DNA of 64,000 nt from Escherichia coli (GTDB lineage Bacteria; Pseudomonadota; Gammaproteobacteria; Enterobacterales; Enterobacteriaceae), in assembly GCF_030384885.1 (NCBI RefSeq), contig NZ_CP128613.1. The stretch is one strand, 5' to 3'. The translations under genes and the position numbers were made by a program. Below are positions 1-55,096 of this stretch, piece after piece; the first letter of the stretch is position 1; each line of letters opens with the position of its first letter. Below the pieces are notes generated by a model. That model worked only from the letters and a program-made list of their open reading frames with translations. It did not search any database and was not told the origin of the DNA.

Positions 1-528
1 TGCTGCTTCAACGGCGGGATATCCTTGCAGCAAGCCGCTGCCGGAGAATGCCCCTATTACCGTACCAAATACCCACGATGACCATGAACTGAAGGCAATG
101 CCGATCATCCAGTTCTCGCTCCAGCGGCGATTATTGCGTACCAGTTTTGCGGTTGCGGCGGCAAAAACCTCATCCGTCAGGCCAAACGCCCACAGGGCAG
201 TTTTCGATTTTTGCAGACGCTGAATAATACGGCTACGCAGTGACGGGCCATACAAAACATGGCGAACATCCATTGCCATGACGGTCAGTGCAGCAACCCA
301 CAAACTACTCCCGGCTGCCAGCATCGCGGTAATGACGAACTGGCTCGCGCCTGCATAAATGATGCAGGAGAAAAAAACGCTTTCGAGAGGAGAGAATCCC
401 AGACGGGTCGCATTCAGACCAAACGCAAAGGCCACCGGAATATAACTAATAACAATCGGTAAACTGTCTTTGCATCCTTCCATGAAGGTCGCCGAACCAG
501 GAGCAGGCTGTGGAGTAGGGCTTTCCAT
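1..528 (-). CDS. ygaZ: AzlC-family exporter subunit YgaZ, N-terminal part (gene runs off the window start)
   Basis: Minus-strand translation from ATG (complement of 526-528) reads MESPTPQPAPGSATFMEGCKDSLPIVISYIPVAFAFG... with no stop before the window edge; sits downstream of ygaY as in E. coli. Confidence 0.7.
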   Translation of the reverse strand, partial: MESPTPQPAPGSATFMEGCKDSLPIVISYIPVAFAFGLNATRLGFSPLESVFFSCIIYAGASQFVITAMLAAGSSLWVAALTVMAMDVRHVLYGPSLRSRIIQRLQKSKTALWAFGLTDEVFAAATAKLVRNNRRWSENWMIGIAFSSWSSWVFGTVIGAFSGSGLLQGYPAVEAA

Positions 529-651
529 AGAGTGTACGCTTAACGATTGTTAATATTATAAATAGACTGAATGAATATCTTAACCTTATCAGACTGATGG
601 GCTTCTTAACACCCTTATAAGTGTAAAGCCACGAAAACGGTTGCTGATTGC

Positions 652-1836
652 TTAAATTGCGGCTTCCTGACGATGAAAACCTCGCCACCAGACCAGTAAG
701 TTAACCAGGGCAATCGTCGCGCCAGCCAGACAAACGCCAGCCCAACCGCCATGTTGCCAGGCTGAGGCTGAAATTAGCGAACCGGCGGCACCGCCAATGA
801 AGTAGCTGGTCATGTAACCTGCGGTCAGGCGATTACGCGCATCAGGGTGTATTCGATAAATTACCGTCTGGTTAGTGATATGCACGCCCTGCACGGTGAG
901 ATCCAGCACCAGGATGCCGATAATCAAGGCCAGTACGGAAGTGTGTCCAAACCAGATAGCCAGCCATGAAAGTAACAGCAGCAGCAGGCCGAAAGTTGTG
1001 GTGAGGTGTGATTTGCCCTTATCGGCAAAACCGCCCGCCGGACGAGCGCCCAACGCTCCGGCAGCTCCCGCGAGTCCAAACAGACCAATTACGCCATCGC
1101 TGTAATTAAAAGGCGGAGCGGCGAGCAAAAAGGCCATTGAGGTCCAGAGAATGCTGAAGTTGGCAAAGGTCAGGCAGCCCAGCAACGCGCGGGTGCGCAG
1201 AATTTTATCGCTGATAAACATGCTGAAAACGGAACCAAGCAACTGTGGGTAGTTGAGGTGGGTTTCTGATTTCATTTGTGGCAGACCACGCCATAATGCC
1301 AGCGCCATCAGTGCCATTAACACCGAGGCAACCCAAAAGACGGTGCGCCAGCCGCCGAGGTTTGCCAGCAACCCGGCAACGGTTCGTGCCAGCAAGATCC
1401 CCAACAGCAGCCCGCTCATAATGGTGCCGACCACTTTGCCGCGTTTGTCCGGTGAAGCCAGCGTCGCTGCCAGCGGAACCAGAATTTGTGCCACGACCGA
1501 GAATAAACCGGTTAATGCCGTACCGAGGATCATCATCGCCAGCGACTGACTGCTGGCGGTAATCAACATACCGCCCGCTGCCAGTAAGGTCATCGAGACA
1601 ATCAGGCGGCGGCGTTCAAACATATCACCGAGGGGAACAAGAAACAGCAGACCTGCGGCATAGCCCAACTGCGCGGCGGTAACAATAAAGCCCGCCGAAC
1701 TGGCGGAAAGGGAAAAGTTACGCGCGATGGTGTCGAGTAATGGCTGGGCGTAATAGTTACTGGCTACCGCCAGACCGGTGGCGATAGACATCAGCACGAT
1801 CAGTGCCGGGCTAAGCTCATGATTAGGTTTAGTCAT
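652..1836 (-). CDS. ygaY: MFS family transporter (394 aa, intact)
   Basis: Long ORF with multiple hydrophobic helices, adjacent to proX; position matches ygaY. Confidence 0.8.
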   Translation of the reverse strand: MTKPNHELSPALIVLMSIATGLAVASNYYAQPLLDTIARNFSLSASSAGFIVTAAQLGYAAGLLFLVPLGDMFERRRLIVSMTLLAAGGMLITASSQSLAMMILGTALTGLFSVVAQILVPLAATLASPDKRGKVVGTIMSGLLLGILLARTVAGLLANLGGWRTVFWVASVLMALMALALWRGLPQMKSETHLNYPQLLGSVFSMFISDKILRTRALLGCLTFANFSILWTSMAFLLAAPPFNYSDGVIGLFGLAGAAGALGARPAGGFADKGKSHLTTTFGLLLLLLSWLAIWFGHTSVLALIIGILVLDLTVQGVHITNQTVIYRIHPDARNRLTAGYMTSYFIGGAAGSLISASAWQHGGWAGVCLAGATIALVNLLVWWRGFHRQEAAI

Positions 1837-2027
1837 TATTTTTGTTCATCAGGTGATGATTAAGCTGGAAATCAATAATAGCGGATGTTGATGAATATGG
1901 GATGAAAGATAGATTGTTGAAATGTGCGGTGTGGTTTGCAGGCATGATAAGACGCGGCCGCGTCGCATCAGGCATTGTGTACAGAGCGGCGGATGAGGCA
2001 AAAGCGCCTTATCCGCCCGAATAAAAA

Positions 2028-3020
2028 TTACTTCTGCGCTGCCAGCGCCTCATTCACCCAGCCATCGAACTGCTGCTGGTGGGCTTTGATCCAGCCATCA
2101 ACGTGGCCCTGGATATCGCCTTCTGAGGCTTTGCCGTCATGCATGATGGCGTTCTGGGCGTTAATGTCTGCCACCGGCAACTGCATAATGGCAAATAGTT
2201 TGGCTGCCGCCGGGTTTTTCTCGGCCCAGGCTTTGTTGGCAACGATATGCATGGTGCTGACCGGGAAGCCATAATTCGCACCATTCGGCAGTTTAGTGTC
2301 GGCGTTTTTATCGCCCGGCAGTGCGGAGAACGGCACCTGCAACCAGACGACATCTTTGCCCGGCTTCAGTTCGTTACTCACCCAGTACGGCGTCCAGGTG
2401 TAGTAAAACACCGGCTTACCCTCTTTGTAACGACTGATGGTGTCAGCCATCATCGCTGCGTAGTTCCCCTGATTATGCGTCACGGTATTGGTCAGTTCAT
2501 ACGCTGCAAGCTGGTGGTTGATCGCACCTTCGCAGCCCCAGCCTGGGTTACAGCCAGTCAAATCTGCTTTACCGTCGCCGTTGGTATCGAACAGTTTGGC
2601 GATCTTCGGATCTTTCAGTTGCGCGATGTTGGTGATTTTGTACTGGTCGGCGGTTTTCTTATCGATCAGGTAACCCTGTGCCGCGCCGTTAACGAATACC
2701 CCTTCACGATAAAATTTCTTATCGCCACCGGCAGCTTCGTACATGTTGTCATGCAGCGGCGTCCAGTTCACGGCGGTGAAGGTTGCATCGCCGGAAGCAA
2801 GTGAGGTGTAGCCAACGTTGTAATCCACTTCGCTGGGTTTATTGACGGTATAACCTAATTTCTCCAGCGCGCGGCTGACCAGCAGCGTCTGGAAAGTTTC
2901 TTCGGTGATGGTGCTCTGAACCGGATTAACAGTAATGCCTTTGCCCGGCAGGTCGGCAGCAAAAGTTTGTGTAGAGATAAGCGTGGCAAACGCTGTCGCA
3001 AAAAGTACGCTATGTCGCAT
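2028..3020 (-). CDS. proX: Glycine betaine/proline ABC transporter periplasmic binding protein ProX
   Basis: Protein from [31 protein letters not shown]... recognisable as ProX with signal peptide; start placed at ATG 3020 rather than the longer ORF-track extension. Confidence 0.9.
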
Positions 3021-3077
3021 TGTTATTCCTTTTTTTGGCAGGGTGATAATGCCCGGCGTCACCGGGCAAGTGCAGAG

Positions 3078-4142
3078 TTACTTAATGAATGGGCGGGTCA
3101 GCAGACCGACAGGGCCAGTGGTGTACCAGCGACGGTTGCCGCGACTGCGTGAGTCGCGCCCAACGGCCTGCGTCAGGCGGTCGAGGATAATGGCGAGGAT
3201 CACAATCCCGACGCCGCCAACGGTGGCAAGGCCCATATCCAGACGACCGATACCGCGTAGTACCATCTGACCCAGCCCGCCGACGGCAATCATCGAGGCG
3301 ATGACCACCATAGAAAGGGCCAGCATCAGCGTCTGGTTAACGCCCGCCATTATGGTCGGCATCGCCAGCGGTAACTGAACTTTGAACAGCATTTGACGCG
3401 GGCTGGCACCGAATGAGCGCGAGGCTTCAATTAAATCCGCCGGAACCTGATTAATACCAAGAATCGTCAGACGGATAATCGGCGGCAGAGCAAAGATTAT
3501 AGTCACCACTACGCCCGGCACGTTGCCGATACCAAACAGCATGACGATTGGCACCAGATAAACAAACGCTGGCGTGGTCTGCATGGCATCAAGCAGTGGA
3601 CGAATAATTTTCGCCGCTCGCGGACTTCTCGCGAGCCAGATCCCCAACGGCAAACCTATGACGATACAGAACAGCAGGGCGGTTAACACCAGCGCCAGGG
3701 TAACCATGGCCTGCGACCAGGCACCGATTGCGCCGATGGCAATCAGCGAAACCAGCGTCGCCACGCCCATTCCGACCCCGGAAATCTGCCAGGCGATGAG
3801 AGCGAAAACGATAATCGCCACCGGCGCGGGCATACCCAGCAGCAATTGCTGGAAACCGTTGAGGATGTAATCGACCGGAACGCGCACGCCCTGAAAGACG
3901 GGACGAAAATGGGTAACGACCCAGTCGATCCCTTCAGTGACCCAACTGTCGAGCGGGATCAGCGTTTTATGGAACGGATCGAGAATATTAAAATGTTCGA
4001 CATTTGGCGCAGGCGTACTGGTCAGCCAGTCAGCGCCACCGCCGTCAGTCGGTGCAGTCGCCGGTGTACCCCAGGCGTCTGCGGATTGTGCAGCACTGTC
4101 CGCCGCTGGCGTGGTATCCCACGGATTATTTTGATCAGCCAT
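3078..4142 (-). CDS. proW: Glycine betaine/proline ABC transporter permease ProW
   Basis: 354-aa membrane protein with ABC permease signature, between proV and proX. Confidence 0.9.
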
Positions 4143-5337
4143 TATTTACCCCCTCACGATCTAAAGCGCGCAGCAGCATTCCTTTCGAAATGATGCCGAC
4201 ATACTGTTGGTCCTCGTCGACCACGGGCACCGCACAGGGCGCTTGTCCGACATGAGAGAGCAACTCGCTAAGAGGCGTTTGCGCATCGACTGCTAATGGT
4301 GCATCAATCAGCGCCGCATCAAGACCTTGCTGCTGCGTTAACGCGGTTTTAAGCGAATCGATAGACACAGCGCCGACAAACTTATTACCGCGTTCGATAA
4401 CGTAGCCATATTCGCGGTCTTCATCCTGCAATAATTTCAATGCCGAACGTGGGCCGAAGCCAGGGGTTTTACGAATTAAGCCATTCGGTGTCCGACGGGC
4501 AATATCTTTCGCACTGAATACCTGACTAATATCAACGCCACGGAAGAAGGTACGGACATAATCATTCGCCGGATTATTGAGAATTTCATCCGGTGTGCCA
4601 ACCTGCACCACTTCACCATTTTGCATAATGGCAATTCGGTCGCCAATACGCATAGCTTCGTCGAGATCGTGAGAAATAAAGACAATGGTACGTTGATGTT
4701 TCGCCTGTAATTTTACCAGCTCATCCTGCATCTCAGTGCGAATTAATGGATCAAGCGCCGAGAAGGCTTCGTCCATTAATAATATATCCGGATTAATTGC
4801 TAATGCGCGTGCTAATCCGACGCGTTGACGCATCCCACCAGAGAGCTCGTCCGGGTAGCTATGGGCATAATTTTCCAGCCCGACCTGACGCAGTGCATCA
4901 AGGGCTTTTTCCCGACGTTCTTCGGCATTAATTCCGGCCAATTCCATACCGAATGCAGTATTGTCCAGCACGGTCATATGCGGCATTAAGGCAAAGGACT
5001 GGAAGACCATCGCAATCTTTTTTCTGCGCACCTCACGGAGTTCGGCGTCGGATATTTTGGCAATATCCACACCATCAATCAGCACTTGCCCGCGGGTGGG
5101 TTCAATCAGGCGATTGAGAAGGCGTACCATTGTGGATTTACCCGAACCGGATAATCCCATGATGACAAATATCTCGCCTTCTTCAATGGCCAGACTGGCG
5201 TCTTTTACGCCAAGCGATAGCCCGGTTTTTTCCAGAATTTGTTCTTTTGAAAGTCCTTGTTCGATATATTTGAACGCTCGCTGAGGATGCTCGCCAAATA
5301 TTTTATAGAGATTTTTAATTTCTAATTTAATTGCCAT
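4135..5337 (-). CDS. proV: Glycine betaine/proline ABC transporter ATPase ProV
   Basis: Walker [13 protein letters not shown] signature [16 protein letters not shown]-terminal CBS region; 400 aa. Confidence 0.92.
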
Positions 5338-5692
5338 GCAATAGAAAGATTCCTGTTATTTGTTTATGTCGATACATTACCCAATGGAAATAGTCACTTT
5401 TTTCTACCCTAACATACTGAGAATCTGAGGCAACCCCTGATGGTAAATGTGGCATGAATATTGATGCGAGCAAATCGCCGGAATTTCCCGTGATATAAGG
5501 GCTGAGAGCGAATCGAGAAAAGTTGATATTTTTTGTCATAGATAGCGAAAAAACGCCTGAATATTGTGGTTTCAGGCGAATAATGCAACAGAGTATCAGT
5601 GTAGATCACCACAAAATATTTGCGTGATAAAAAGCTATTTGGCAGGAATTATTTCCCTACTGTGGTTGGTGATATTTTTGAAAATAACACAC
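5338..5692 (-). promoter_or_regulatory. proU (proVWX) upstream promoter region
   Basis: AT-rich intergenic region upstream of proV; osmoregulated proU promoters are known to lie here; individual -10/-35 elements not resolved by eye. Confidence 0.35.
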
Positions 5693-6661
<969 letters not shown>

Positions 6662-8806
6662 TTAAAGCGCGCAGGAGACGCAGCCTTCAATTTCAGTACC
6701 TTCCAGCGCCATCTGACGCAGGCGGATGTAGTAGAGCGTTTTGATACCTTTGCGCCAGGCGTAAATCTGCGCTTTGTTGATATCGCGAGTGGTGGCGGTA
6801 TCGGGGAAAAACAGTGTCAGCGACAGCCCCTGATCGACATGGCGAGTCGCTTCGGCGTAGGTGTCGATGATCTTTGCTGCGCCGATTTCGTAAGCGTCCT
6901 GATACAGCGCCAGATTCTCGTTAGTCATAAACGGGGCAGGGTAGTAAACGCGTCCTGTTTTGCCCTCTTTGCGTATCTCTACTTTCGCCACAATCGGATG
7001 AATACTCGACGTGGCATGGTTGATATAAGAGATGGAACCGGTTGGCGGCACCGCCTGGAGATTTTGGTTGTATATGCCATAGCGCATCACGTCGTCGCGC
7101 AGCTGCGCCCACATCTCACGGGTAGGTAACGTAATACCGCTGCGGGCAAACAGTTCGCCAACTTTCGCCGTTTTCGGCTGCCAGTTCCCTTGCAGATATT
7201 GGCTGAAATATTCACCATTGGCATAGCGTGACTGTTTGAACCCGGCGAAGGTTTCACTGCGTTCGCGCGCCAGCAACATCGAGGTACGCAGTGCGTGCCA
7301 GGTGATGGTATAGAAATAGAGATTGGTGAAATCCAGTGCTTCCGGCGAACCATAGGCGATGCCTTCTCGCGCCAGATAACCGTGTAAATTCATCTGCCCC
7401 AGACCGATAGCGTGTGAGGCGGCATTTCCGGCTTCGATGGACGGCACGCTGCGAATATGACTCATATCTGACACCGCAGTTAAACCGCGCACGGCGATCT
7501 CTACCGTGCGGGCAAAGTCGGGGGAATCCATGGTGTGGGCAATATTCAACGAACCTAAATTGCAGGAAATATCATGGCCTGTGCGGGCATAGTCGAGATT
7601 CTCGTCATACTCTGAGGCGCTGTTAACCTGTAAAATTTCTGAGCAGAGATTGCTCATATTTATGCGCCCGGCGATAGGGTTAGCACGGTTAACCGTGTCT
7701 TCATACATGATGTAGGGATAGCCGGACTCAAACTGGATTTCTGCCAGTCGCTGGAAGAAATCACGGGCGTTGATGTATTTTTTGCGGATTCGCTCATCGG
7801 CAACCAGTTCGTCATAGTGTTCACTGATGGCGATATCGGCAAACGGCTTGCCATAAACACGCTCAACGTCATAGGGCGAAAACAGTGCCATCTGCGCATT
7901 CTCTTTTGCCAGATGGAAGGTGATATCCGGGATAACCACGCCCAGCGACAGCGCTTTAATGCGGATTTTCTCGTCGGCATTTTCCCGCTTTGTATCGAGA
8001 AAACGCAGAATATCGGGATGATGGGCATGTAAATAGACTGCGCCAGCACCCTGACGAGCGCCGAGCTGGTTGGCATAGGAAAATGCGTCCTCCAGCATTT
8101 TCATCACCGGAATCACGCCAGAAGATTGATTTTCAATACGTTTAATTGGCGCGCCCGCTTCCCGCAGATTCGACAGCAAAAATGCCACGCCGCCGCCGCG
8201 TTTCGACAGTTGTAGTGCGGAATTTACCGCCCGGCCAATCGACTCCATATTGTCTTCAATACGCAGCAAAAAACAGGAAACCAGTTCGCCGCGCTGCCGC
8301 TTACCGCAGTTGAGGAATGTCGGTGTTGCAGGCTGAAAGCGTCCTGACAGCATCTCATCGGTCAGTTGCGTAGCCAGTGTTTTATCGCCTTGTGCCAGCG
8401 TCAGCGCCACCATCGTGACTCGATCGGCAAAATCTTCCAGATAATGCTTACCGTCGAATGTCTTCAACGTATAGCTGGTGTAAAACTTCCATGCTCCGAG
8501 GAATGTCTGAAAACGAAAACCGCTGGCGTGTGCGTGGGCAAACAGCGTAATGACAAAATCGCGAGAGTAGCGGTTGAGGACGTTTTCATCATAGTAACCT
8601 TCGTTGACCAGCCAGTTCAGGCGCTGCTGCTGGCTACTGAAGGTCACACTGTTCGGACGCACATGTGTCGCCATAAAGGCGTCAACGGCCTGGCGATCTT
8701 TATCGAACTGAATGCGACCTGCGCTATCGTAAAGGTTAAGCATCGCATTCAGAGCGTGGTAATCCATCGTTTCCTGCGTCAGGCGTTCTGCGGTTGTCGT
8801 TGCCAA
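6662..8806 (-). CDS. nrdE: Class Ib ribonucleotide reductase alpha subunit NrdE
   Basis: 714-aa protein with RNR catalytic motifs (NLCSEI region, C-terminal CVSCAL). Confidence 0.92.
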
Positions 8807-50996: not shown

Positions 50997-52658
50997 TTAC
51001 GCCGCAAGCAGTTCTTTCGCATTCGCCAGTGTGTTACGTGTGACTTCACTGCCACCAAGCAGGCGCGCCAGCTCTTGTAACCGCGCTTTTTTGTCCAGCG
51101 ACTCCATATGCGTTTCTGTCATCGCACCATCGGTTTCTTTGCTGACAAAATAGTGTTGATGACCACATCCCGCGACTTGTGGCAGGTGGGTAACACACAT
51201 CACCTGAGTTGATTCGCCGAGTTGACGCAGCAGTTTGCCGACAACTGCCGCTGTTGGACCGCTAATCCCTACATCCACTTCATCAAAAATCAGTGCCGGG
51301 GTTTCCATTTTACGCGCTGTGATGACCTGAATTGCCAATGCGATGCGGGACAATTCACCACCAGATGCGACTTTGGCAATAGGCTGCATTGGCTGACCTG
51401 GGTTGGTGGTTACCCGAAACTCAATACGATCAGCGCCGTCAGCGCCCAGGTGATGCTCGTCAAATTTAACATCAATCGTAAACTGCCCATGCGGCATAGA
51501 GAGTGCATGCATACTGTCGGTGATCAGCTGTGCCAACTCATTTGCATAATGCTGGCGTTGCTGGTGTAACGCGCGCGCCGTTTCCAGTGCCTGCTGATGA
51601 TGTTTCGTTACCGCCAGCGCGAGCGTTTCTTGTGAGTCGGCCTGATCGTCCAGTTGCTGCTGTTCTTCCAGTAGCGACTGGTAATACTGTGGCAATACCT
51701 CAGGGCTGACGTGATGTTTACGTGCCAGCGAAATCTGTTTTGAGATGCGCTGTTCAAGTTCAAACAGTCGGTTGGGATCAAGATCCAGACGATCGCAGTA
51801 GTGGCGCAGTTCGTCGCTGGCTTCAGCAATCTGGATGGTAGCCTCTTCCAGCATATCAAGTACGCCGGACAGTTTGCTGTCCATGCCAATCAATTCGCTC
51901 ACCAGTTGTTTAGCCGTGTAAAGCTGGCTTTGCAGGTTTGCGTCTTCGCCGTCGGCCATTAATGCCAATGCATTCTGGCTGGTGGTCAGCAATTGACCGC
52001 TGTTCGCCAGACGTTTGTACTCTTCGTCGATTTGCTCAAACTCTCCGGGCTGCGGATTAAATTCGTTCAGTTCTTTTAATTGGTATTGCAGCAGCTCCGC
52101 ACGAGCGGCGCGTTCCTGACTTAACTGTTGATGATGCGCGAGGTCGCGGCAGCTTTGATGCCACAACTGATAACGTGCGGTCATTTCCTGAAGCAGAGAG
52201 GTTTCATTGGCATAGCCATCAAGCAGGAATTTTTGGTGCTCGGGTTTGGTGAGTAATTGATGGGCGTGCTGACCATGGATCTGAATGAGCAACTGGCCCA
52301 GTTCGCGCAGTTGTGACAGTGGAACAGCTGTACCGTTGATAAAACCACGAGAGCGACCATCGCTACTGATTACGCGACGAAGCAGGCATTCACGGCCATC
52401 TTCCAGTTGGTTTTCTTCCAGCCAGCGCAGTGCTGCGGGTGTATCTTTCAGAGAAAAACGGGCGCACAGATCTGCGCGAGCAGCGCCGGTACGCACCATG
52501 TCGGCTTCAGCGCGACCGCCGAGACAAAGGCCCAGGGCATCTATTGCAATAGATTTACCCGCGCCGGTCTCGCCGGTGATTACGGTCATGCCGCTGTGAA
52601 AATCAATCTCAAGCTCACGAACGATAGCAAAGTTGCTGATGGTCAGTTGTGCCAACAT
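50997..52658 (-). CDS. recN: DNA repair protein RecN
   Basis: 553-aa SMC-like ATPase (Walker A GETGAGKS), coiled-coil middle. Confidence 0.95.
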
Positions 52659-52743
52659 AGTTGTTTTCCTGTATGAAAAACCATTACTGTTATTGTGTAC
52701 AGTATAAACTGGTTTTATATACAGTAAAGAGGCTGGCGTAAAA

Positions 52744-54336
<1,593 letters not shown>

Positions 54337-54342
54337 ATGTCT

Positions 54343-54372
54343 GATGGCCGACGTGAAGTCGGCCATTTTTTT
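54343..54372. terminator. Rho-independent terminator after grpE (bidirectional)
   Basis: Hairpin GGCCGAC-GTGAA-GTCGGCC followed by ATTTTTTT. Confidence 0.75.
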
Positions 54373-54976
54373 AGCTTAAAAAATCCTGTACTTCCAGCCA
54401 CGGCGTGTTGAAATCATCTATTTTTTTATAGTCGTTCATTGGCAGAACGACCACGTTATAGGTGTCAGAACCTTCATTCAGATCAAAAATCTGAAAGCCT
54501 CTCTTATTGAGTTCGGTCTGGATGCGTTCAAAGATCTCGTCAAGGTAGCGGTCTCCGGCTTCACAGACATCGGAGATTTCATCCTCTTGGGTTATTTCGA
54601 CAAGAAGATTCCTTAATTCCTCAGAAGCTGTCAGGTTTTTTGTGAGTTCATAAAAGCGATCTGCAGCAAAATTAGCCAGCTCACCTTCTTCATCTTCACC
54701 TTTCCAGTCAACGAGTTGAATTAATCCTTCACTGCGTAGAACCTGTAAAAATGCCTGCGCCAGGTCATGATTTCCGAGATCGCCTCCACTGCAATCGAGA
54801 ACGTCTTGCAATCCATATTCGTCTTCATCTTCGTCTTCAAAGATTTCAGGTTGCGTCGAAAGTTGAGAGAAAATAGTGGGCCATAAGGTTGGGGTGTGCT
54901 GTAAAAAAACGCTGGCGACGACGTTGAGGTCGTCGGAAAAATCCTTATCCCATTCAATTACATAATCTTCTGACAT
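54371..54976 (-). CDS. Hypothetical highly acidic protein (about 201 aa; alternative start at 55012)
   Basis: ORF with acidic runs ([17 protein letters not shown]); preferred start [12 protein letters not shown] has AAGGA 11 nt upstream; separated from corB by its own terminator; GC visibly below neighbours. Confidence 0.55.
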
Positions 54977-55061
54977 AACATCAATATCCTTTCCGAATGC
55001 TTGAAAAGACATTATTACATTGCTAAGTAAATGACAGGAATTGATGGAATCCTAAAAGATG

Positions 55062-55090
55062 GCGATAAAAAAGGCGAACCGGAGTTCGCC
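55062..55090 (-). terminator. Rho-independent terminator after corB (yfjD)
   Basis: Minus-strand hairpin GGCGAACTCCGGTTCGCC followed by TTTTTTT. Confidence 0.65.
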
Positions 55091-55096
55091 ATTGTG

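Follow-up and report, generated by a model that had tools for sequence, protein, structure and literature searches.

Why does a gene encoding a small and strongly acidic protein lie between grpE and yfjD (corB) in an Escherichia coli genome, at a place where K-12 has a short intergenic region? We addressed this question in a stretch of 64,000 nucleotides (nt) from E. coli (assembly GCF_030384885.1, contig NZ_CP128613.1), which we call the window and whose first letter is position 1. The first-pass annotation of this window had described a very acidic open reading frame (ORF) of about 200 amino acids (aa) and low GC content at 54371–54976, had suggested that K-12 has no such gene, and had proposed that it might be a strain-specific insertion; it had added that acidic proteins of this size are often immunity, anti-restriction or DNA-mimic proteins. 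The interval proved to be exactly the coding sequence of a gene of the DUF6630 family, and the gene is indeed missing from K-12. Our results do not support an insertion specific to the strain, however. The most parsimonious reading is that it is an old enterobacterial resident of this slot, patchily retained, whose divergent alleles appear to have moved between lineages by homologous recombination. Two features define the locus:

54330–55095, no strand assigned: whole cassette without a K-12 counterpart (766 bp with a single ORF; pairwise alignment with K-12).
54371–54976, minus strand: DUF6630 coding sequence, stop codon included (201 aa; ORF and its translation).

In K-12, 54 bp separate the stop codons of yfjD and grpE. 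The cassette stands in for this intergenic region together with its shared terminator, which is unrelated to those of the cassette, and the last codon of grpE, such that the C-terminus of GrpE reads AKAK* in the window versus AKAKA* in K-12. We found the DUF6630 gene in 303 of 5426 complete E. coli genomes (~6%), in every case on the chromosome and within the grpE–yfjD interval. A contiguous junction of the K-12 type (54 bp) was present in 5122 of the same genomes. Together these two classes account for 5425 of the 5426 genomes, which indicates a polymorphism with two clean states. The gene is therefore accessory, and not a conserved core gene of known function shared with K-12. When identity to the window was measured over an 801-bp query spanning the cassette (54300–55100), 291 carriers fell at 95–99%, 11 at 80–90% and a single one at ≥99%.

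This single genome, 2013C-4282, is the only one of the 5426 to match the query so closely. The core genes of the window from recN to ffh (50997–58723) are 95–97% identical to those of K-12 at the nt level, and their proteins are 99–100% identical. Based on the low nt identity to K-12 and the single close match of the cassette, we conclude that the window comes from a divergent Escherichia lineage, possibly a cryptic clade, rather than from a typical E. coli.

The same slot is occupied in other genera. Using tblastn of the flanking proteins, we recovered the order ypjD, yfjD and DUF6630 gene on one strand, converging on grpE, with nadK divergent from grpE. The orthologues and homologue found in this arrangement are the following, with aa identities to the window protein:

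Escherichia whittamii: same slot, 90% identity.
Superficieibacter electus: same slot, 67% identity.
Salmonella enterica: same slot, 62% identity.
Klebsiella spallanzanii: same slot, 45% identity.
Entomohabitans teleogrylli: same slot, 40% identity (the contig ends within the gene).
Metagenomic enterobacterium: same slot, 33% identity (the adjoining GrpE is 92% identical to that of the window).

Intact orthologues of 199–203 aa were present in at least six genera. Their low GC content was equally conserved in the four genera compared, with 43–45% overall and 42–48% at third codon positions (GC3), relative to 50–55% for the flanks. The identical slot in at least six genera, the homologous hairpin at the end of yfjD (described below) and the shared low GC together speak against the strain-specific insertion that had been proposed.

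These results suggest that the DUF6630 gene has long resided in this slot of the Enterobacteriaceae and was lost repeatedly, which is the parsimonious reading of its patchy distribution. One observation weighs against ancestral presence followed by loss: the K-12 junction holds no recognisable remnant of the cassette, and the direction of the original change consequently rests on outgroup synteny alone. The cassette does not correspond to a site-specific island. Its borders coincide with the ends of grpE and yfjD, and we saw no integrase, tRNA/tmRNA site or border repeat in the K-12 alignment, although no dedicated repeat search was run. Salmonella LT2 may have a gene (STM2680) in this slot; the scan of species representatives yielded no Salmonella locus and we make no claim on LT2.

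The gene appears to be functional wherever it is retained. The ratio of nonsynonymous to synonymous substitution rates (dN/dS, Nei-Gojobori) ranged from 0.09 to 0.17 in all pairs with unsaturated dS, and the ORF was intact in the nine orthologues examined (9/9; 199–203 aa). This pattern indicates that the protein evolves under purifying selection where it is present. Constraint on it is looser than on the neighbouring proteins: its E. coli and Salmonella forms share 62% identity, versus 91–98% for GrpE, YfjD, NadK and Ffh. We considered rapid evolution under positive selection as an explanation and rejected it, because dN/dS is close to 0.1 and the allele divergence within the species is old (dS of 0.86).

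Within a species, the slot can hold very divergent alleles. One E. coli allele (L003) is 75–82% identical to the window, and this divergence is confined to 54400–54950; the upstream sequence is 97–98% identical. Counted per 50 bp, the mismatches of this allele number 6–19 in all but one bin of 54400–54950 and 0–4 in the upstream intergenic region and flanks. Its dS relative to the window is 0.86, which is roughly the depth that separates E. coli from Salmonella. The opposite pattern was observed in two Salmonella sequences (L022 and L023), which carry a cassette of the Escherichia type: over the gene and the two adjoining intergenic regions they are 93–94% identical to the window at the nt level, whereas the flanks (ffh, ypjD, yfjD, grpE, nadK and recN) are only 80–88% identical. 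Other Salmonella (L004 and L005) present an allele of 67% nt identity within flanks that are equally Salmonella-like. The recombination breakpoints lie close to the 3′ ends of yfjD (~55200) and grpE (~54340). As judged from these alignments, at least three deeply divergent classes of alleles occupy the slot, besides a null allele, and species and genera have them in common. The excess identity of the cassette over its flanks in L022 and L023 points to an exchange of divergent alleles, including between Escherichia and Salmonella, by homologous recombination within the conserved flanks.

Both of these Salmonella sequences are filed as plasmids: L022 is NZ_LN868944.1 ('plasmid 2', 728 kb) and L023 is NZ_CP110658.1 (pS2122_1, 272 kb, IncHI2A). 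They carry the chromosomal core block trmD-rimM-rpsP-ffh-ypjD-yfjD-grpE-nadK-recN-bamE-smpB. Either they represent mis-assigned or mis-assembled chromosome or, for the IncHI2A record, a plasmid with a captured chromosomal segment.

We then defined the product of the gene. The ORF list contains an entry at 54371–55012 (minus strand) of 213 aa, within which an internal ATG at 54976 yields the form of 201 aa. The longer reading was rejected: its ATG at 55012 is not conserved among orthologues, whereas the ATG at 54976 and a GGAAAGGA box upstream of it are kept in the orthologues of Escherichia, Salmonella and Superficieibacter (alignment of upstream regions). All orthologues start with MSEDYVIEW or a near variant. 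The RefSeq protein WP_001287921.1 is identical and annotated as 'DUF6630 family protein', and the form of 201 aa is also the one annotated in NZ_CP027579.1 (E. coli 2013C-4282), a genome 100% identical. Older records name members of the family 'cytoplasmic protein'. The protein contains 49 D+E (24%) and 12 K+R residues, for a net charge of −37 and an isoelectric point (pI) of 4.05, and no signal peptide was detected in it. The GC content of the gene is 43.1% and its GC3 is 42.6%, as compared to 50–54% and 53–64%, respectively, for grpE, yfjD, ypjD, nadK, recN and ffh. Two small features belong to the gene itself:

54987–54994, minus strand: putative Shine-Dalgarno-like GGAAAGGA box, ~10 nt 5′ of the ATG at 54976.
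54421–54427, minus strand (coding strand): A7 homopolymer at codons K183–K184, a frameshift hotspot.

Frameshifted database variants break at this homopolymer. One of them (P0007, 187 aa, ending in KKNR*) is represented by 52 member sequences; another (P0009, 232 aa, 82 contigs) is frameshifted at the A7 and continues into the antisense strand of grpE. These variants could reflect recurrent inactivation or homopolymer sequencing errors. Taken together, the Pfam match described below, the intact orthologues and the dN/dS of 0.09–0.17 indicate that the ORF is a real gene and not a chance reading frame.

The protein is a full member of Pfam DUF6630 (PF20335), with 43.9 bits for the reading of 213 aa and 45.5 bits for that of 201 aa, relative to a curated gathering score of 27 bits. 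It is a single domain of ~200 aa and nothing distinguishes it from the rest of the family. All 26 members of our family alignment matched DUF6630 and none matched a second Pfam family. The gene is therefore already known as a catalogued, RefSeq-annotated family of unknown function. In the library searched, we did not find any paper on DUF6630/PF20335, on STM2680 or on a gene between grpE and yfjD. The window protein had no match in NCBIfam, no defence family in PADLOC at E≤1, and only an insignificant best match in PHROGs (E of 0.19). The family is very small: phmmer, run exhaustively against 1.84 billion representatives, returned 37 matches at E≤1e-3, many of which were fragments. Profile searches added ~10 members, all of them single-domain proteins of 136–282 aa. 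No domain fusions were seen in the family, which is distributed over Enterobacterales, Enterovibrio, Campylobacteraceae, Chitinophaga and other Bacteroidota-like contigs. No homologue was found in 50,697 phage records. There were no true plasmid homologues either, as the two 'plasmid' matches are the chromosomal segments with the core genes trmD to smpB mentioned above.

Conservation across the family is concentrated in a few positions. D90, E94 and F103 are invariant in the family alignment; W91, L156 and D171 are almost invariant, the last two being kept in ≥90% of its sequences. When only distant members were aligned, D, W, E, F and D were invariant. These residues fall in a [VI]DW-x-GE-x-x-G...F motif and in a G-x-D-x-Y β-hairpin, which form the core motif of the family. 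Strong acidity is likewise a family trait, with net charges from −4 to −40. The AlphaFold2 model, built from 26 sequences, was confident (predicted local distance difference test, pLDDT, of 91.7; predicted template modelling score, pTM, of 0.88) and presented an α/β fold with six short strands and ~10 helices. We found no significant match to this model with Foldseek in the PDB (best E of 0.37, TM score ≤ 0.19) or in the viral structures of BFVD (best E of 0.52), and a profile search of PDB sequences returned coiled-coil noise only.

Two distant members (P0078, at 8001–8645 of L019, and the protein at 6727–7341 of L029) start with a hydrophobic, signal-peptide-like N-terminus (MKKFIFTLFGSLLGLNA... 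and MKSVIIALIAMLFANTS..., respectively). Part of the family may thus be exported, unlike the enterobacterial proteins. A contig of a Streptomyces cahuitamycinicus assembly (L014, NZ_POUC01000996.1, 413 bp, ~1x coverage) encodes a fragment with 92% identity to the protein of E. coli; it is almost certainly an enterobacterial contamination.

The gene is co-directional with yfjD, downstream of which it lies, and convergent with grpE. Three further features bear on its transcription:

54343–54374, plus strand: grpE terminator (hairpin 54343–54367 with a 10-bp stem, followed by T7; terminator scan and fold).
55067–55090, minus strand: yfjD/corB terminator (hairpin 55090–55073, GGCGAAC-TCCG-GTTCGCC, followed by T6; terminator scan and fold).
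55011–55017, minus strand: candidate −10 element (TAATAAT, preceded by TG), with no convincing −35.

The first-pass annotation had credited the gene with its own terminators. Two terminator hairpins do bracket the gene, but they belong to grpE and yfjD. The grpE hairpin folds at −18.1 kcal/mol on the plus strand (z of −4.75) and at −16.1 kcal/mol on the minus strand, and directly adjoins the DUF6630 stop codon. This terminator may be bidirectional, although its tail on the minus strand is poor in U and forms a weak U-tract. The yfjD hairpin folds at −13.1 kcal/mol (z of −3.9) and is recognisably homologous (GGCGrnC...GTTCGCC) in Escherichia, Salmonella type B and Superficieibacter. It insulates the DUF6630 gene from read-through of yfjD. 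Because this terminator sits 5′ of the gene, the gene needs a promoter of its own within the ~95 bp before its start codon. A scan for consensus promoters yielded no site upstream of the gene. A candidate −10 is a TAATAAT/GATAAA element ~35 nt 5′ of the ATG, whose ATAA core is conserved in the alignment of upstream regions. As far as can be read from the sequence, the gene constitutes its own transcription unit between the terminators of its neighbours.

An Rfam scan of the region returned just an isrD-like match on the grpE terminator hairpin, which we dismissed since it is below the gathering score (19.8 bits versus 37). No stop codon interrupts the strand opposite grpE over the whole gene, such that nadK is listed as an ORF of 540 aa (52744–54366, minus strand) running antisense through grpE. 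Similarly, the frame of grpE is open for 153 codons 5′ of its true start (listed as 53287–54336, plus strand). These extended nadK and grpE ORFs are artefacts of ORF listing and not genes.

We next examined the genomic contexts of the distant homologues. In most of the ~13 distinct contexts, the gene is solitary amid housekeeping genes, and in those examined the non-syntenic homologues do not adjoin CNNM/CorC genes. Outside the yfjD–grpE slot, we found the following:

L008: between gsiA and moeA.
L015: between a LysR regulator gene and a dms-like operon.
L021 (Budvicia-like genome, 22% identical): 8001–8558, alone between recR and htpG.
L026 and L027: directly after an aroE-like gene.
L029: after a thioredoxin-family gene, near lpxD/C/A.
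L018 (Enterovibrio): adjoining the gene of an uncharacterised protein of 857 aa.
L009 (38% identical; metagenomic contig, 1–7441): last gene of a vgrG-DUF4123 island, before an IS3 transposase.
L017 (Chitinophaga): adjoining an IS3 integrase and uncharacterised proteins.
L019: followed by two uncharacterised genes and an ankyrin-repeat gene.

After grpE, L021 provides the second case of a DUF6630 gene beside a heat-shock gene, and this may be a coincidence. In L026 and L027, we considered whether the tight upstream gene might be a toxin and rejected this candidate, as the gene is aroE-like. The order in L009 is the C-terminus of VgrG, a DUF4123 adaptor, a fragmented effector, duplicated small genes, an ORF of 182 aa, the DUF6630 gene and the IS3 transposase. 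The effector is apparently frameshifted and the set of small genes is present in two tandem copies (3264–4206 and 4221–5182). The contexts of L009, L017 and L019 are suggestive of islands of interbacterial conflict, but the hint is thin.

What, then, might the protein do? Our best guess, which we advance tentatively and which may well be wrong, is that the protein works by itself, as an orphan-immunity type of molecule that binds or inhibits a basic partner. The family-wide charge, the solo-gene architecture, the polymorphism of several alleles plus a null allele, and the one homologue in an island of the type VI secretion system (T6SS) make this the likeliest of the options that we considered. 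The protein would act alone, as a stoichiometric binder neutralising a positively charged partner, for which the likeliest candidate would be a nucleic-acid-targeting toxin from competing bacteria. The acidic surface found across the family would supply the electrostatic complementarity, and the structural core or the binding pocket would be built from the conserved DW-x-GE and G-x-D-x-Y elements. Patchy presence, several old alleles and exchange across genera are the pattern expected under frequency-dependent selection.

Orphan immunity families are known from T6SS, contact-dependent growth inhibition (CDI) and polymorphic toxins, for instance SUKH/SMI1-KNR4 and Imm. Like these proteins, the DUF6630 protein is small, acidic, cytoplasmic and single-domain. 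Its gene is likewise patchy, with divergent alleles and horizontal exchange, and one homologue stands at the tail of a vgrG-DUF4123 island. Several observations nonetheless weigh against an immunity function. No toxin gene adjoins the DUF6630 gene in the window, where grpE and yfjD flank it, nor does one adjoin most of its homologues, whose contexts are of the housekeeping kind. Just one of the ~13 contexts (L009) is a toxin island, and even there the DUF6630 gene comes third in a downstream array and the effector is not adjacent. We detected no similarity of the protein to immunity, defence or phage models of Pfam, NCBIfam, PADLOC and PHROGs, nor any likeness in fold to a known immunity family. 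D90 and E94 are invariant and D171 nearly so down to 20% identity, which resembles a metal or active site more than an immunity interface. The selection acting on the gene is purifying and not diversifying, and a family with so few representatives is smaller than most immunity families.

Three other functions deserve consideration. The protein might be a nucleic-acid mimic or regulator, whose polyanionic surface sequesters a basic DNA- or RNA-binding protein of the cell itself, for instance a protein of the nucleoid or the ribosome, or an RNase. There are precedents among small acidic chromosomal proteins, since DMP12 and HI1450 bind HU and RraB binds RNase E. The net charge of −37, the pI of 4.05 and the acidity of the whole family fit this view, as do the cytoplasmic, single-domain protein, its gene always standing solo in housekeeping surroundings, and the purifying selection. 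We nevertheless regard it as unlikely: the model matches no solved DNA mimic or acidic regulator, and an endogenous regulator is not expected to be absent from 94% of E. coli or to present alleles at dS of ~0.9 within one species. A metal-binding or enzymatic role through D90, E94 and D171, perhaps tied to the CNNM protein CorB/YfjD, for example as a cytoplasmic Mg2+/Co2+ buffer or an accessory factor, seems less likely still. It would explain why D90, E94, F103 and, in ≥90% of sequences, D171 persist down to ~20% identity, and would agree with the 24% of D+E residues. In each of the seven syntenic lineages, moreover, the gene follows yfjD directly and on the same strand, and in K. spallanzanii the gap between the two is only 61 bp, with no terminator hairpin that aligns. 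However, a strong terminator separates them in Escherichia, Salmonella and Superficieibacter, the non-syntenic homologues are not beside CNNM/CorC genes, the fold matches no enzyme, and yfjD works without the DUF6630 gene in 94% of E. coli. The position next to grpE in seven enterobacterial lineages and the homologue that separates recR from htpG in L021 could also suggest an accessory factor of the heat-shock chaperone network. We consider this improbable, given that the gene is convergent with grpE and hence not co-transcribed with it, that only these two slots support the idea while other homologues lie elsewhere, that no σ32-like promoter is evident, and that the fold does not match chaperones or co-chaperones.

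Two further readings concern the status of the gene rather than its function. Low GC relative to the flanks, absence from K-12 and extreme acidity could betray a recent foreign insertion, specific to the strain, that carries a gene of the Ocr/ArdA type directed against restriction or defence. This reading is largely refuted and we give it very little credence: the slot is the same in at least six genera with a divergence that broadly follows relatedness, and there are no border repeats, integrase or tRNA. The lack of phage homologues and the chromosomal nature of the 'plasmid' matches (segments with ffh, rpsP and recN) count against anti-restriction in particular; in addition, no structure in the PDB or BFVD matched, and neither PADLOC nor, at a significant level, PHROGs returned a hit. 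The gene might instead be a decaying relic without current function and heading for loss. Its absence by loss from 94% of E. coli, the variants of E. coli and Salmonella that are frameshifted at the A7 or otherwise truncated, and the low GC3, which suggests weak codon adaptation, would be in line with decay. Yet dN/dS remains at 0.09–0.17 over divergences up to saturation, every lineage keeps a length of 199–203 aa, the model is well packed and of high confidence (pLDDT of 92) and the Shine-Dalgarno-like box is conserved. Decay is therefore very improbable.

DNA-mimic and anti-restriction proteins offer a second point of comparison. These include Ocr and ArdA, and DMP12 and HI1450 among chromosomal mimics. 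The DUF6630 protein resembles all four in being small and extremely negative, and its net charge and pI predict an acidic surface of the same kind. Its predicted α/β fold matches none of them, and, unlike Ocr and ArdA, it is not carried by phages or true plasmids but resides on the chromosome in a fixed core slot. It also does not correspond to any defence-system protein of PADLOC-DB. The locus itself recalls the variable slots between core genes of enterobacteria, which hold alternative cassettes exchanged through flanking homology. As in such slots, the flanks are conserved, the gene is present or absent, the alleles are very divergent, and the breakpoints are sharp at the ends of the flanking genes. 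The difference is that the cassette is a single gene of 0.77 kb rather than a multi-gene island, and that it has no mobility genes.

As a gene for a catalogued domain of unknown function, the DUF6630 locus adds little by itself. What our analysis adds is a conserved slot with three allele classes and a null allele, the apparent transfer of a cassette between Escherichia and Salmonella, and a confidently predicted fold without a solved or viral counterpart. A bolder proposal, which we hold to be doubtful, is that DUF6630 represents a structurally new class of stand-alone protective proteins (orphan immunity or nucleic-acid mimic) kept as a balanced polymorphism of presence, absence and several alleles in a fixed core slot of Escherichia and Salmonella. 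If true, this would be a 'defence slot' of one gene, without mobility genes, encoding a fold unseen in the PDB and exchanged between genera via flanking homology. The 303 genomes that carry the gene and the 5122 that do not constitute a natural set to mine for toxins or phenotypes that co-occur with it. Were an immunity or mimic function to be established, the protein would define a new family and illustrate how protective genes are exchanged through recombination without mobile elements.

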